Shown here: piece after piece, positions 123 through 58,629 of the stretch | How the letters are laid out: the number at the start of each line of letters is the position of its first letter | Numbering within the stretch: position 1 is the stretch's first letter | Origin: an uncultured virus (IMG/VR IMGVR_UViG_3300029305_005079) | Lineage: Duplodnaviria > Heunggongvirae > Uroviricota > Caudoviricetes | Length of the DNA stretch: 64,000 nucleotides | Reading direction: 5' to 3' (one strand) | IMG/VR virus record: IMGVR_UViG_3300029305_005079 | Notes under the pieces: model-generated | Told to the model about the DNA's origin: nothing | What the model saw: only the letters and a program-made list of their open reading frames with translations | Databases searched by the model: none | Position numbers and translations under genes: made by a program

Positions 123-2369
123 TTACTCATTATCTGAGTCGTCCGGAGCTTCTAGCGGTGCAGTGATCTTATCAGGATCTTCGAAGAAGATCATAGGCTC
201 ATAATACTCGCCAGGAGTCGGTTTGAATTCTTCATCCTTGGGCTCTTCAAGACCATTAATAGCAAACTGAGGTCTTTCCATGAAGAATAAATCCATAAAT
301 GAAGCTCCTCTCTTTCTGAATGTAAGAGGATTATAAAGCAGTTTATCCACCTTCTGATAACTCATAGAGATGGTAACACTAGGGTTGTCTGTAAGAGATC
401 TATTAAGAGATAAAATCTCATAATCTGGATCATACATAAACCACTTGGGTTTTTTAAGAATATCGTGAGCATCTCTGATCTGGTTAGAGATAATAATCTC
501 AAGATGTGTAGATGCTATATTAAGTCCACCTTCTATAACTGTATCAATCACAGCCTGCAAAAGCTGATGGATATCGAGACCTTTAATGGTGCTATTTTTA
601 TTCAATAAATCTTCAAGATGCTCAAGAGTTTTAGACAACTCATTATTTTCAATAGGAATAATAAAGAGAGTAATATTCTTGAGATCAGGAAGATCTATAG
701 AAATTTTTCCATCAAGAGGTTCTCCTTTCTTACGGATAATACTATTCAATTCATTTGAAATATATAGTTTAACGCCTTTATCATTTGTAATATGATGAAG
801 CTCATTACCCTGCAAAATATCGAATTCTGTAATATATTCATTATAGATAGGAGCTGTATTGTCATCATCACCAAATCCAAGATCATCATCTTCTTCATTT
901 ACGAGTTCGATATTTTCAGGATCTAGAATGAACTTGCAATCTTTAAACTCTCCATCGTCTACAAGACGAATCATATTACCTTCGATTTCAAAGAATTCAT
1001 TAAACTTCTTAACCCATACAACTTTTTCAGCAAATGTCTCGAGAAGATGTTTTGCAGAAAGAAGTTTCTGAGTAAGGCTAGACGAAAGTGTTTCGCTTGC
1101 TATACGTCCGATATTTACGCCAAAATGGATTCCGGCATCATATACTGTATAAGCAAGATCTCCATAGCACTTATAACAAACTCCATGACCTCTAGCGGCT
1201 GAAGCGCAAGTGATAGGAGATCTAAGATAAATTTTCTGACCTATAAGATGTGTATCATTTCTAGATATCTGCATGTCTACCCCTCTAGGATTAAGACGAT
1301 AATATCTATTACAAAGCATCTTAAGAGTTTTCTTATCTTTAATAATGACTTCTACAAAATTAGGTGTACAACAATCGTAATTCTTATCTTCATGAAGGAA
1401 AGAATCCATATTGTTAAGACCGAGAAGTCGTGCAAAATGACCAGAAGATCCTACGTTATTATATTTAATAATCTGAGCTGTTCTTCCAGTAGATGATTCG
1501 ATAAAGTAATCAAGAGGTGTTACAACACCACCATTGATAAACGAGTTATAGATCGGTATCGGGAAAATACCGCCCCTACCGTCAGGTTTGGTTCCGATAT
1601 TGATAGTAAACTCTTTAAACTGCTTCGGATTAATACCTTCAGAAGCTCTACATGCATCTGCAAGGCAGTGGTCATATCCGAGATAGCCCTTGGCATCTTT
1701 CATAATATCGATTGCTTTATTTGCAAATTTCATACCTACCGATTTTACATCTTCGATAGGCACATTTCTTAAATCTGCATGCATGCAATCTCTAAATTCT
1801 CCACACTTGTTCATGAGGAAAACATTGTCTTCAAGATTTACCGTATTCGCCAAATACATTGCAAATTCATCAACGTCATGAAAATGACAAAGAGTATCAT
1901 CAATAATATTATTAAGCTCTTTATTAGTAAATCTTTTTCTATTCGCATCGATAAAGAATTTATCAATATAATCTTTGATTGTATCTTTCTTAATCTCTGT
2001 ATCAAAGAAAACATGCTTAGATTCTATAGGAGTGTCTGTCCTAATAAGCATATTCCACATGATGAGATTAATAAGATAATCTGGAATTGAGAGTTCAAGA
2101 ACATTATTATCAGCGAATGTAACGCTAATAAAACATTCATGAACAAGATCAAGTTCGATACCATCTCTAAGAATATTAAGGATAGAGTCATAATGCATTT
2201 TCCAATTTTCTTTAGTGATATCGGCTGTATTAATGAAAATTAAATTATCATTTTCATAGTTTAAAATTTGTGCATAAGGCCCATAATTCTCTGGATGGTT
2301 AAGGCTTTGAGTTTCCTCATAATAACCATTATCAAGTAATATAGACCTTGAAAGATCATAGTTTGCCAT
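123..2369 (-). CDS. Multisubunit RNA polymerase beta-prime C-terminal subunit (probably non-virion RNAP)
   Basis: RSPITC...CYKCYG Zn site and NIGRIASETLSSSLTQKLLSAKH trigger-loop-like segment; start moved to ATG 2369 after AGGAG; early-type promoter upstream. Confidence 0.88.
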   Translation of the reverse strand: MANYDLSRSILLDNGYYEETQSLNHPENYGPYAQILNYENDNLIFINTADITKENWKMHYDSILNILRDGIELDLVHECFISVTFADNNVLELSIPDYLINLIMWNMLIRTDTPIESKHVFFDTEIKKDTIKDYIDKFFIDANRKRFTNKELNNIIDDTLCHFHDVDEFAMYLANTVNLEDNVFLMNKCGEFRDCMHADLRNVPIEDVKSVGMKFANKAIDIMKDAKGYLGYDHCLADACRASEGINPKQFKEFTINIGTKPDGRGGIFPIPIYNSFINGGVVTPLDYFIESSTGRTAQIIKYNNVGSSGHFARLLGLNNMDSFLHEDKNYDCCTPNFVEVIIKDKKTLKMLCNRYYRLNPRGVDMQISRNDTHLIGQKIYLRSPITCASAARGHGVCYKCYGDLAYTVYDAGIHFGVNIGRIASETLSSSLTQKLLSAKHLLETFAEKVVWVKKFNEFFEIEGNMIRLVDDGEFKDCKFILDPENIELVNEEDDDLGFGDDDNTAPIYNEYITEFDILQGNELHHITNDKGVKLYISNELNSIIRKKGEPLDGKISIDLPDLKNITLFIIPIENNELSKTLEHLEDLLNKNSTIKGLDIHQLLQAVIDTVIEGGLNIASTHLEIIISNQIRDAHDILKKPKWFMYDPDYEILSLNRSLTDNPSVTISMSYQKVDKLLYNPLTFRKRGASFMDLFFMERPQFAINGLEEPKDEEFKPTPGEYYEPMIFFEDPDKITAPLEAPDDSDNE

Positions 2370-40929: not shown

Positions 40930-43437
40930 ATGGCTAAGATAGATGTATTAGACATCTTGAGGGCAAAAAAGAAATCACCTCTTGAATTTAATTACGATAA
41001 TCTTTGGATTCCACCGATGGGGGTTTTTCTAACTCCAGATGATGTGGAGGCTTTAAGACGTATAGCTACATCTTTAAAATTATCTTCTAAAATTCAAGAG
41101 AAGTATAGAATGATAGATGATATTATGCGTCGTAGAGGGTTTAAACGATTTGCTGCAGGTACCAATAGAGTTGTTTATAGTTTTCTTGAAGATACAAGAT
41201 TTGTAGTCAAGATAGCTGTAGATAGAGTTGGTATGCAAGATAATCCTATGGAATATAGGAATCAAGAACTAATCAAACCTTATTGTGCAAAGATGTTTTA
41301 TATTTCGCCTTGTGGCACTGTTGGGTTTGCAGAACGAGTTCTACCTGTAAAGAGTAGAGCGGAATTTAAAAATATCGCAAGTGATGTATTTGATATTTTG
41401 ACACACAAAATATTAGGTAAATATGTCATGGAAGATATAGGTGTCAAGTATTTTATGAACTATGGTAAACAGTTTGCCCTGGACATGGGTAACCATGTTT
41501 CAGCACCTCTTGAATTGCTGGAAGGCTAAGGGAGAAATCCTATGTTAATCAGCAGCTAAAATTATTGTATAATGAAAAAAAATCTATGGGAAAGGAGGAA
41601 GATATATGGAATATATCAGACCTATGGAATTTTGGAAACAATTAACAAAAGATATTGTTGGAGCTGATATAGAGGACTGGTACTGGATCAGTACAGAAGG
41701 ACGAATATATTCAACAAAATCAAATAAAATTTTAAAATTATCTTATGACAATGATGGATATGCCATTATAGGATTATACTATAAAGGGATCCATAAACAA
41801 AAGAATTTTAGGGTTAATAGACTCGTATTATTAGCATTTAATCCTGTTCAAAATGCTGAGCAATTGGTATCAAATCATTTAAATGGAATAAAAGATGAAA
41901 ATCATGAATTCAATTTAGAATGGGCCACATATAGTCAAAATACGATTCATGCATTTAATAACGGATTATCGACACCACTATATGGTGAAAAGAACCCAAT
42001 GGCCATTATAACCGACGCTCAGGCTAAACAGGTTGCTGGCATGCTATCAGAAGAAAAATATACGTATTCCGATATAGTTAATGCAACTGGAGTTCCTGTA
42101 GATATAGTTAGTAGTATAAATAATGGACGTTCTTGGGATAAATATTATAAAGAGTATGACCTTGAAAATAAGCATAATCCTAGAGAAAATGCGGTATTCT
42201 CATATTATGATATACACAAAATATGCAAATATTTTGAAGATCATCAGATAACAACATTAGATAGATCTATAAAAGAAGATATTTTGAAGTATATTAATTA
42301 TCCTTCCAATATTTCTACTAGAAAGATGCTACAGAGAATTTTTGACAAACAGAGGCATGCAAAAATATCATCATTATACAATTTTTAAGTTCAACGACTA
42401 TCGAAAGGATAGTATAGAAGAAATATCTATACAAATAACCGAGTAGAGTAGGAGAAATCCGAAGTGGGAGGCATCTTATATTTGGTAATAGAATATAAGA
42501 TGAAGATATAGTCTAGCCCTTTATGAAAATAAAGGTAGTAGCGGTTCGCTATGGGTACGGCCCAGTGTTACTTGACTATCCATTTATTTATAAGCTGGAT
42601 GGAAATAAGTTATTTTGCAATAAAGTAGATCCGGCTACAAATGAACCCTGTAATGGAGAGATCGATTACGATGTGGGTTTCAATCACTTAGTTTGTACTC
42701 GATGCGGCAAAATTTATCTGGCAACAGATTTAAAAGATGACAGCGTCGAAAACAAAATTATAATCAAAGGAGGCAATCAAATGAAAGTTGTACTCAAAGT
42801 GGGAGATGAAATTGTAGGACGTCCCATTCCTACCGAGGAGGTTATGACACCTCCGAGACGAAAGATCGAAAATAAACTCGGTCTTGTTGTAAAGATTTCT
42901 GGAGGTAATATTACACCTGCAGAAGAGGTTGTTGATAAGCAGCCTGAAACCCCTACCACTCCTGTAATCAAGGAGGATAAGAAAGAGGAGAAAGCTACTA
43001 AGGGCGAGAAGAAGCCTGAGGTTACTCCCGAAAAGCGTGAGGCTATCGAGAATATCGAAAAGTCCACAGAATCTAAATTCATTCCTAAGGATACTGTAAT
43101 CGAGCAGGAGTCTAAGAAGGAAGAGCCTGTAGTGGCTACTAAGCCTGAATCTACAGATGAACTCGAACTTGCTGTTATTGAAACTGAGGATGAAGCAGAT
43201 GAAAAAGATGACGATGCTGCAGCTGAGGTTGCTACAACAGCAAGCGCTGTAGAAACTTCTATCGCAGATAAGTATGCTGATATGTATGACGACTATGATG
43301 ACGATGGAAGTTCATTCAGAGGCCGTCAGCCTATCAGAAAGAAGAATACTGTTGAGAGGGATGCGAATGGAAGATTCGTATCTACAAAGAACGGATCTAA
43401 CAAGAAAAAGAATAATAGAATCCCTAGCAACAAGTAA
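40930..43437 (+). CDS. Protein kinase-like protein, spliced: join(40930..41466,42544..43437), 476 aa
   Basis: AAGTNRVVY, VVKIA and DIG..FMNYG joined in frame to VRYGYGPVLLDY; Cys ribbon and acidic tail. Confidence 0.75.
41467..42543 (+). mobile_element. Group I intron carrying a homing endonuclease ORF
   Basis: Core elements GAATTGCTGGAA, AATCAGCAG, GTTCAACGACTA and AAGATATAGTCT; P1 U-G pair at 41466; terminal G at 42543. Confidence 0.9.
41606..42388 (+). CDS. Intron-encoded NUMOD4/HNH homing endonuclease
   Basis: YWISTEGRIYS, NRLVLLAF and NHLNGIKDENHEFNLEW. Confidence 0.88.
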   Translation: MEYIRPMEFWKQLTKDIVGADIEDWYWISTEGRIYSTKSNKILKLSYDNDGYAIIGLYYKGIHKQKNFRVNRLVLLAFNPVQNAEQLVSNHLNGIKDENHEFNLEWATYSQNTIHAFNNGLSTPLYGEKNPMAIITDAQAKQVAGMLSEEKYTYSDIVNATGVPVDIVSSINNGRSWDKYYKEYDLENKHNPRENAVFSYYDIHKICKYFEDHQITTLDRSIKEDILKYINYPSNISTRKMLQRIFDKQRHAKISSLYNF

Positions 43438-56736: not shown

Positions 56737-58629
56737 ATGGCAAAGATGACAGTAAATACAAGGTACTCGAAGGATGACAACTATGAGTACGAAACTCGTC
56801 TTGAACGTATTAATATGGATACAGAACGAAGAAAAGACGTACTTTCAGGTAACGGCTTTATCGTAAGTTCTCCCAAAGCAATCAAAGACGACATTAAAGA
56901 CCCGAACGGTATCTATTCAACAAAGTATGGTCCTGGTCTTCAGGATGCTAATGCTTTTGGTAATAGATATAGATGTAAATGTGGACATACTACGTCAAGA
57001 TTCTATCATGGTCTTGTATGTGAAGTATGTGGAGAAAAGGTAGAATTTAAGGATGACAACTTTAGCATGTTTGGCTATATTTGTCTTAAGAATCCTTATT
57101 ATATCATTCATCCCAACCTATTTATGTCTCTCGCTTTCTTTATTGGTGAAAAAGATTTTATGGGTATAATCACACCAGATGATAGAAAAGACGAAGATGG
57201 TCATGAGATTGAAATTAAAAGACCTAAAGACGAACCTTTTAGAGGTATCGGTATGATGGATTTCTATGAAAGATTTGATGAAATCATGGAATACTATTGT
57301 GCTAAGAAACCTCAGAAACGTGAATATTATGATAATATTATGGAAGACAAGGATAAAGTATTTATCCAATCTATTCCTGTATTTACCATTCACTTAAGAC
57401 CATTCAGATTAGATGGCGGTGTATTCCACTTTGAGGGAACTAATGCTACCTATAATATGATGGCAAACATAGCTGCCAGAATTAATGATGATAAGACGGC
57501 TATGAATAGAAAAAAGAAACCTAAAAATCAGCTACTATTTGATCTTCAGATGAAATATAGAGAGCTCTATGATGAAATCAGAAAGATTATAAGTGGTAAG
57601 AAAGGATCTAGAGAGTTCTTATGGATCCCTGTAGCGAAATCTACAGAAAACAACCTCTTGAATTGCTGGAAGGCTAAACTCGAAAGAGCATGCTAATCAG
57701 CAGCGAAGTAAGATATATGGCAGGATGGCGAAATTGGAAAACGCAATCGACGGGCTTATATCTATATGAGCTACACACTCATGATATAAGAATTGATTTA
57801 CTGGTTCTAATCCAGATCCAAACTGGGGGTTCGAGCCCCTCTCCTGCCACCATTCTTAAACGTTCAACGACTATCGAAAGACGTCTATTATAGATGAATC
57901 TAGTAGAGTAGGAGAAATCCGAAGTGGGAGGATCCCAAACAAGTAAAGCTGTGGGATAAGATATAGTCTGATCCATAGTGAAAACTATGTGGCTCAATGA
58001 TAAGAGCACTTTTCGGGGGACGATATAACTTTACAGCAAGATCTGTTATTGCCCCCGGTCCTGATCTTAGGATCGATGAAGTTGCTCTGAGTTATCCGTG
58101 TTTGTGCGGATTACTTCAGCAACGAATTATTAATATACTTCATAAATCTTATTTTATGAAGTATAATGATGCATATAAGCTTCTTCATGAATCCATGCAT
58201 CAAGAGAATCCTATCATTAGACAGATAATAGAAGGTATTATTAAGTCTACCGATAGAGGAATTCCTGTATTGATTAATAGAAATCCTACAATATCTTATG
58301 GTGGTATCTTACAAGTATATTGTAGTAGAATTTCTGAAGGATATACAATGCTATTGAATCTGCAGATCCTTGAAGGATTGGCTGCAGACTTTGATGGAGA
58401 CACCTTAAATATCCTTCTTATTATTAATCAAGATTTTCAACAAGCTGCAGAGTATGTATTTAATCCTCGTAATTCGATGTATATATCTAAGAATGATGGT
58501 ATGTTTAATAACTCATATAATCATAAGAGAGATACAATCATTAATATGAATACATTAGTACAGCTTAGTAGAAGTAAATATAGTGCTGATCAGATTGCAG
58601 CTATTAAGGCTGCGCAGGCTACTGTATAA
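56737..58629 (+). CDS. RNA polymerase beta-prime N-terminal catalytic subunit, spliced: join(56737..57609,58000..58629), 500 aa
   Basis: RCKCG..CEVCG Zn finger; spliced GKKGS-IRALFGGRYNFTARSVI; NRNPT and ADFDGD. Confidence 0.92.
57610..57999 (+). mobile_element. Group I intron without ORF, containing a tRNA-like element
   Basis: P1 GGATCT/GGATCC with U-G; P10 TCTTAT/ATAAGA; same core elements as intron 1; terminal G at 57999. Confidence 0.92.
57719..57852 (+). tRNA. Atypical 134-nt tRNA-like RNA nested in the intron; anticodon ambiguous
   Basis: GGCAGGA/TCCTGCC acceptor stem plus ACCA, Leu-like D arm, GGGGG-TTCGAGC-CCCTC T arm, expanded centre. Confidence 0.8.

Follow-up and report, generated by a model that had tools for sequence, protein, structure and literature searches.

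A tRNA-like cassette in the P6 loop of a group I intron in a jumbo-phage RNA polymerase gene, and its possible role as exchangeable cargo

In the td group I intron of phage T4 the open reading frame (ORF) is placed in P6, and to our knowledge phage group I introns have been regarded as selfish ribozymes whose sole cargo is the endonuclease that spreads them. Here we describe a DNA stretch of 64,000 nt from an uncultured virus of the Caudoviricetes (IMG/VR record IMGVR_UViG_3300029305_005079; "the window" means this whole stretch) in which a P6 loop holds a 134-nt tRNA-like element, which we call the cassette. The loop belongs to a group I intron in the gene for the catalytic beta-prime subunit of an RNA polymerase. 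In the parts of two sources that we drew on, introns with homing endonucleases in jumbo-phage genes are reviewed (PMC12908238), and tRNA genes are annotated inside group I introns of the mitochondrial atp6 and cox1 genes of Ophiostomatales, where they are treated as ordinary tRNAs, one of them after a LAGLIDADG ORF, with no comparative or structural analysis alongside (PMC7902536). In the literature that we searched, supplements aside, we found no phage group I intron described as holding a tRNA or a tRNA-like RNA.

The intron described here is like phage introns with an endonuclease ORF (T4 td and nrdB, and the HNH introns in phiKZ-type RNA polymerase genes) in its ribozyme family, in the kind of host gene and in the loop that is used. 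It is unlike them in that the insert appears to be a structured non-coding RNA and the intron is without an endonuclease of its own. We believe there is about an even chance that the cassette is a gene for a non-decoding tRNA-like RNA, an exchangeable P6 cargo that would be cut out by tRNA-processing enzymes and would act in trans.

The cassette has the following parts, in window coordinates.

57719-57852, plus strand: tRNA-like cassette, 134 nt, between UAAGA and UCUUA (Rfam model RF00005, predicted fold, matches of our covariance model R1, covariation)
57719-57725 with 57842-57848, plus strand: acceptor stem, 7 bp
57728-57744, plus strand: D arm
57745-57798, plus strand: extended hairpin replacing the anticodon arm
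57801-57815, plus strand: variable hairpin with loop UUCUAAU
57825-57841, plus strand: T arm
57849, plus strand: discriminator A
57850-57852, plus strand: encoded CCA

The nucleotides of the tRNA elbow are present, namely U8, A14, G18-G19, the T loop UUCGAGC and a G-C pair that closes the T stem. The D stem has 3 bp and its loop reads AAAUUGGAAAA, with the GG in place. Tools for finding tRNAs, which the initial annotation had proposed as a check, gave a split answer. The Rfam tRNA model RF00005 recognizes the cassette with 35.5 bits against a cut-off of 29 (E-value 2.9e-6 on 191 bases and 0.00099 in a sensitive scan of the whole window), provided that the anticodon arm is given a 46-nt insert and the variable region is allowed to be long, but ARAGORN with default settings reports no tRNA in the window and none in 30 related loci. 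A gathering-mode Rfam scan of the whole window did not list the cassette as a tRNA. In intron mode ARAGORN makes a doubtful call of tRNA-Ser(aga) with a 37-nt intron; we rejected it, as the loop is without U33 and the call is absent in the other variants of the cassette. For transfer-messenger RNA (tmRNA), neither ARAGORN -m nor the Rfam tmRNA model at E-values up to 10 gave a match to the cassette, and the Rfam mascRNA model did not match it.

Folded alone, the cassette reaches z = -3.17 and none of 200 shuffled sequences folds as well; the cloverleaf is also retained in the minimum-energy fold of the entire intron. At the position of the anticodon arm is a hairpin of about 20 bp, made up of a basal stem, an internal loop, an AU-rich stem of 8 bp, a bulge and an apical stem-loop. 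Because the tip of this hairpin varies between copies (below), the cassette would be unable to decode. Excising any putative intron from the cassette restores no believable anticodon loop, and no leucine anticodon is present.

The 3-bp D stem, a D loop of AAUUGG type, the discriminator A and the additional hairpin are hallmarks of class II tRNAs. An exact search with the 19-nt D-arm word hit 36 viral loci, in which ARAGORN calls nine tRNAs, six of them tRNA-Leu. These same tRNA-Leu genes are the best matches (40–47 bits) of R1, the covariance model that we built from the cassette, outside the cassette family. From this evidence the cassette apparently derives by descent from a class II tRNA of the tRNA-Leu type. 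A BLAST search of the cassette against isolated phages returned a 24-nt match in the T arm and nothing more.

The cassette sits in the intron as follows.

56737-57609, plus strand: exon 1, N-terminal part of RNA polymerase beta-prime, 291 codons, ending in GKKGS (phrog_2987)
57610-57999, plus strand: group I intron, 390 nt (RF00028 alignment, in-frame exons, intron-less alleles)
57604-57628, plus strand: helix P1 (Rfam alignment)
57629-57646, plus strand: helix P2 (Rfam alignment)
57652-57704, plus strand: P3 through P4' (Rfam alignment)
57709-57718, plus strand: 5' strand of P6a, UAAGA (57709-57713), and 5-nt leader UAUAU (57714-57718), which puts a U at -1 (sequence)
57853-57873, plus strand: linker U, 3' strand of P6a, UCUUA (57854-57858), 3' strand of P6, J6/7 and 5' strand of P7 (AACGUUCAACGACUA) (Rfam alignment)
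58000-58629, plus strand: exon 2 of beta-prime, 209 codons plus stop, with the catalytic ADFDGD motif (PF00623 at 53.9 bits, phrog_2987, translation)

The initial annotation had placed a group I intron at these borders in the catalytic subunit, and this is borne out. The Rfam model RF00028 matches 57600-57990 with 69.7 bits against a cut-off of 50, over model positions 1-253. The 5' splice site lies just after U57609, which pairs with G in P1, and the terminal intron base is G57999. The exons fuse in frame as GKKGS|IRALFGGRYNFTARSVI, and their products together cover phrog_2987 positions 46-282 and 287-472 and also match Pfam PF00623. Among 26 related loci that cover the junction, 24 have the exons uninterrupted, so intron-less alleles exist; the other two (L020 and L023) have an insertion. 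Exon 1 is 35–85% identical to its relatives and the alignment always stops at the junction. Between P7 and P3' is a 49-nt insert (57874-57922), at the place where the extra helices P7.1/P7.2 of a subgroup IA intron would lie. The P6 hairpin holds an insert of 147 nt in the Rfam alignment, and the tRNA-like element is inside it. The acceptor stem, discriminator, CCA, D arm and T arm that had been read between UAAGA and UCUUA in the initial annotation are likewise all there. We found no homing endonuclease ORF within the intron, where the ORFs have only 23–76 codons. A BLAST search of the intron against isolated phages gave matches to the intron core only.

The cassette is not restricted to this one intron. 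BLAST found a copy with 87.6% identity in L005, L006 and L007, which are identical to each other, and this copy is in a different intron of the beta-prime gene, inside the catalytic motif at ADFD|GDT. Searching 30 related contigs with R1 placed the cassette in four: the contigs of L005, L006 and L007, and G001, which has a third variant. G001, the contig to which L001 belongs, is the window's closest relative. Its variant is in the P6 loop of yet another intron (RF00028, 79.6 bits), which splits a second RNA polymerase gene; in L126 the downstream exon of that gene matches phrog_25005. In all, the cassette occupies three intron positions in two RNA polymerase genes, with one copy on each carrying contig (the contigs being 75%, 90%, 17% and 32% complete by CheckV estimate). 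RF00005 did not report the L005 variant. Exact-word scans of viral contigs with five cassette words found the cassette in L005, L006 and L007 only, the remaining matches being tRNA genes, other tRNA-like genes or chance. A metagenome scan gave 40 matches, all unrelated and mostly GC-rich, and a scan of genome contigs gave one chance match and no tRNA, so that it identified neither the host nor a donor tRNA.

The three introns share what is directly around the cassette. The P6/P6a and J6/7-P7 strands are identical in all of them, and P1-P2, P5 and P7.1-P9 can't be aligned. The flank at 57853-57873 is unchanged, and the P6a strand and leader on the 5' side are the same apart from two additional U in L005. 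We take this pattern to show that the cassette moves between introns along with the conserved P6 flanks.

We then have three variants in which the predicted pairs can be compared. Standard pairs fill 100 of the 102 pair cells, and six pairs are altered on both sides: the acceptor stem accounts for three (G-C to A-U, C-G to U-A and A-U to G-C) and the long hairpin's basal stem for the other three. The observed count was not reached in any of 500 shuffles, and sliding the partners gives zero or one double change. The variable hairpin of G001 is longer through a 5-nt insertion together with two substitutions. None of the three variants alters the ACCA, the U at -1 or the T loop; the D arm varies by a single A inserted in the D loop of G001, and the T stem by one substitution (G-U to A-U) and one inserted U, the latter in L005. 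The apical loops of the long hairpin all differ (CUACACA, CUAC and AGAUC), so this loop should be neither an anticodon nor a fixed docking loop. Covariation across homologous introns was a check proposed in the initial annotation and it came out in favor of the cassette, whose structure appears to be under selection. We also considered a protein-coding explanation, an ORF of 67 codons across the cassette, and rejected it because the indels between variants (1, 1, 2 and 5 nt) break the frame. A joint of 57735 to 57801 in sequencing runs X3 and X8, which could be taken for a deletion variant, was set aside as well. It is most simply a variant of the G001 type, since a loose end in X3 corresponds to the G001 intron in its 3' part.

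What occupies the P6 loop differs between closely related introns. The intron at the same site in L020 is about 90% identical in P1-P5 and P8-P9 and has a 16-nt loop instead of the cassette, and contigs from run X8 join the same flanks across 12 or 15 other letters. The L001 intron at DFD|GD is orthologous to that of L005 (80.5% over 195 nt on the 3' side) and carries an HNH ORF at the position of the L005 cassette. In the window itself there is a second group I intron, in a gene of unknown function that matches phrog_4301.

41467-42534 (approximate), plus strand: sister group I intron, borders from the reading frame only

Only the 3' part of this sister intron is matched by RF00028 (42391-42535, 43.4 bits, below the cut-off), and its core resembles that of the main intron. 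Its HNH ORF at 41606-42388, which matches phrog_59 and Pfam NUMOD4, lies between the P6 strands, in line with the original remark that the two introns use the same loop. In one 51.5-kb contig from run X7 the cassette occurs once and the flanking core is matched at further places. G001 has 12 group I intron matches at E<=0.01 (10 at E<=0.001), seven of them packed into the first 5.3 kb, with the cassette in one; within the window it is in one of two introns. Introns can be dense in these genes: in the beta-prime gene of L020 (L020:2975-4900), three group I introns above the Rfam cut-off and a weaker fourth match lie in about 2 kb.

The same loop also holds true tRNA genes. An Rfam search over the 30 contigs found 17 tRNAs, spread over 9 contigs, and 15 contigs had intron matches. 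Just two of these tRNAs are inside a group I intron, within P6 inserts of 210 or 261 nt in orthologous introns of the second RNA polymerase gene, and the orthologous intron of G001 has what is left of a third.

L140:1501-2082, minus strand: contig G003, tRNA-Leu(UAA) at 1739-1823 with loop CUUAAAA, 54.8 bits
L126:1205-1831, plus strand: contig G002, tRNA-Leu(UAG) at 1460-1541 with loop CUUAGGA, 58.4 bits
L132:1501-2074, minus strand: contig G001 (closest relative), decayed tRNA remnant in the orthologous intron

An encoded CCA follows both intron-borne tRNA-Leu genes. In G002 both kinds of cargo are present, the true tRNA-Leu and the tRNA-like cassette, each in its own intron. An intron-borne tRNA works only once it has been cut out, which makes processing from the P6 loop plausible. 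In the G001 remnant an acceptor-like stem, a T-like hairpin and the ACCA can still be discerned and the D and anticodon arms are gone. Taken together with the three introns, the compensatory changes and the short hairpins or HNH ORFs found in place of the cassette, these genes give good support to the idea put forward in the initial annotation, that the cassette is cargo in the loop that otherwise takes endonuclease ORFs.

How such cargo might be expressed can be set out in steps. The beta-prime precursor mRNA would be transcribed and the intron would splice itself out. Host RNase P would cleave between U57718 and G57719, exonucleases would remove the 3' sequence as far as the encoded CCA at 57852, and the release could take place from the excised intron or from the precursor. 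In T4 td, an intron split into halves within this loop can splice. The freed 134-nt RNA would then be a tRNA mimic in trans. Its partner may be an enzyme that binds or charges it by way of the acceptor end and the elbow and not the anticodon; leucyl-tRNA synthetase and a tRNA-targeting host factor are candidates. The intron would thus be a vehicle for both promoter-less expression and transfer of the RNA. The initial annotation had proposed release by RNase P and 3' processing, and the conserved features (the acceptor stem, the T arm, the U at -1 and the ACCA) are consistent with it. Its further ideas, that polymerase production might be coupled to tRNA processing or that the RNA might be a decoy for tRNA-targeting defences, are conceivable outcomes of such processing. 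The cassette appears to keep what processing enzymes need and to drop what decoding needs.

We see several points that weigh against a released, trans-acting RNA. Splicing and the 134-nt species are themselves predictions from the DNA sequence. The covariation comes from a set of only three sequences and all six double changes come from G001; with two sequences there is no double change, so the signal needs the third variant. In addition, the alignment used for the pair count was fitted to the structure of the model, although the stems concerned are anchored by identical flanks. The additional U in the T stem of L005, and the lower-hairpin pair that is broken in G001, would be poorly tolerated in a strict tRNA. 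Class II tRNAs do not usually have 9 unpaired nt, as the cassette does, between the variable hairpin and the T stem. The ACCA directly adjoins the P6a strand, so it could be one side of an internal loop and not a mature 3' end. Finally, the G001 remnant is a case where a tRNA in the P6 slot has decayed.

A more general version of the trans-acting reading takes the P6 loop as a cargo bay, in which endonuclease genes, true tRNAs and the mimic would be swapped by recombination between the core flanks, with the mimic acting in trans and made only by way of host tRNA processing. We hold this version tentatively, and lean against it as a whole. If it is true, one possibility for the mimic is a Leu-type acceptor that becomes charged without ever decoding; another is a sponge for a host factor or defence recognizing the acceptor end and elbow. 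Phages would then have a new route to express and spread small regulatory RNAs.

The cassette could instead serve the intron itself. As a tRNA-shaped extension of P6 it might recruit a tRNA-binding cofactor for folding, again with leucyl-tRNA synthetase as the candidate, or mark the excised intron for RNase P cleavage and turnover. In favor of this, both independent tRNA lineages in the slot are of the Leu type, and the cassette always comes with the same P6/P6a strands and with tight spacing (5 nt on the 5' side and 0–2 nt after the ACCA). The acceptor stem, T hairpin and ACCA that remain in the decayed G001 copy are also the minimum for RNase P. However, orthologous introns persist with a 16-nt loop or an HNH ORF instead, the cassette is in one of 10 to 12 introns in G001 and in one of the two in the window, and its movement between unrelated intron bodies suits a gene better than an aid tuned to one ribozyme. 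With one copy on each (incomplete) contig, in a different intron each time, and most introns without it, a gene is what we would expect and not a folding aid. For these reasons we consider a role in cis rather unlikely.

On the reading as a decaying pseudogene, an insertion would have destroyed the anticodon loop of a tRNA-Leu once carried by the intron, and the rest would now drift neutrally in a P6 loop that tolerates any insert. The three apical loops offer no usable anticodon, the T stem of L005 is bulged, default ARAGORN rejects the cassette and the tRNA-Leu intron orthologue in G001 has clearly decayed, which speaks for this reading. Against it stand six compensatory double changes with 98% of the cells paired, an acceptor stem that alters only by three paired double changes (in G001), and a variable hairpin lengthened by coordinated changes. 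The T loop and ACCA are identical and the D and T arms nearly so, while the surrounding P5 and P7.1-P9 can't be aligned, and three different introns have received or kept the cassette. We judge decay to be improbable.

We dismiss as very improbable a decoding tRNA of odd shape, in which the CUGG/CCAG hairpin would be the anticodon arm of a UAG amber suppressor or the long hairpin a small tRNA intron, because, although the 7-nt loop UUCUARU is anticodon-like (U33, CUA, purine 37) and is kept in all three variants, the topology is wrong (the long hairpin adjoins the D arm), the CUGG/CCAG stem has 4 bp in the window and about 8 bp in G001, removal of the hairpin yields no plausible anticodon loop, and the ORFs of the window show no sign of TAG recoding (TAG ends 7 of the 85 long ORFs and readthrough merges two frames), on which evidence we rejected an amber-suppressor role.

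The sequencing runs add information on how the intron has been changing. Among the 17 listed of the 22 differences for run X7, 16 are in exon 1 and one is in the intron; among the 13 listed of the 16 for run X9, 11 are in exon 2 and two in the intron. The exon differences in these contigs (window 57302-58298) are mainly at third codon positions, and the intron with its cassette has far fewer. An intron that is better conserved than its exons would fit recent spread or strong constraint, and the low divergence suggests a recent spread of an intron without an endonuclease gene of its own. Part of the stretch is contained in 20 of the 23 runs listed; none of those listed as containing it is recorded as an RNA run, and the labels of the DNA runs are gut, feces, bovine and skin metagenomes.

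The window is AT-rich (35% G+C) and reads well in the standard code. Neighboring genes encode split subunits of multisubunit RNA polymerases, a tail lysozyme or endolysin and a virion structural protein, a gene set that appears to match that of a jumbo phage with its own RNA polymerases. By the protein of exon 2, the nearest isolated phages are AR9-like Bacillus phages, Yersinia phage phiR1-37 and Staphylococcus jumbo phages, at about 31% identity, and a BLAST search of the beta-prime gene DNA against isolated phages gave zero matches. The closer relatives are uncultured IMG/VR contigs of 150–260 kb. From this we take the carriers to be an uncultured clade of gut and rumen jumbo phages with introns in their RNA polymerase genes.

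Free-standing elongated tRNA-like genes of 110–170 nt (L039, L063, L061, L034 and L060) share the 19-nt D arm and the T arm and are not alignable with the cassette beyond the D arm. No group I intron was found in the 15 loci searched. The elongated genes, which sit in or near tRNA arrays of unrelated phage contigs and some of which have added hairpins between the anticodon and T arms, are located as follows.

L052:811-948: elongated tRNA-like gene
L039:1194-1330: elongated tRNA-like gene
L063:1064-1226, minus strand: elongated tRNA-like gene
L061, L066, L034 and L060: elongated tRNA-like genes

Another set of free-standing tRNA-like genes, in L037, L040, L043, L064 (about 1150-1226, minus strand) and L041, shares this D arm and has a T arm of normal form; A-rich sequence replaces a proper anticodon arm and ARAGORN calls them tRNA-Phe(aaa) or leaves them unassigned. 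Two other RNAs turned up in these loci. At L036:1391-1958 a ROOL RNA (197 bits, so above the cut-off) is surrounded by the tRNAs of a phage array, and at L041:1794-2188 there is a weak tmRNA-like match (38.5 bits, below the cut-off).

If the cassette is a trans-acting RNA gene, as we prefer, its logic has counterparts elsewhere. In eukaryotes, mascRNA is a non-decoding tRNA-like RNA that RNase P cuts from the long non-coding RNA MALAT1, and intronic small nucleolar RNAs are small RNA genes in spliceosomal introns that need no promoter of their own. These systems share the proposed logic with the cassette, and they are eukaryotic and not homologous to it. The cassette and the true tRNA-Leu genes in the same loop suggest that introns can be vehicles and expression platforms for small RNA genes, and the cassette points to a class of non-decoding tRNA mimics among phage RNAs.

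Synthetases are already tied to group I introns in fungi, where the mitochondrial enzymes CYT-18 (the tyrosyl-tRNA synthetase of Neurospora) and NAM2 (the leucyl-tRNA synthetase of yeast) aid splicing through tRNA-like features of P4-P6. The cassette is like these cases in being of the Leu type and in sitting on P6, and any binding of leucyl-tRNA synthetase here is a candidate interaction. It is unlike them in that there the ribozyme core mimics a tRNA and there is no separate cloverleaf. The true tRNA-Leu genes in the introns of the relatives resemble the intron-encoded tRNAs of fungal mitochondria. The cassette differs from that organellar case in three ways: it is in a phage, it is apparently non-decoding, and it moves between introns.

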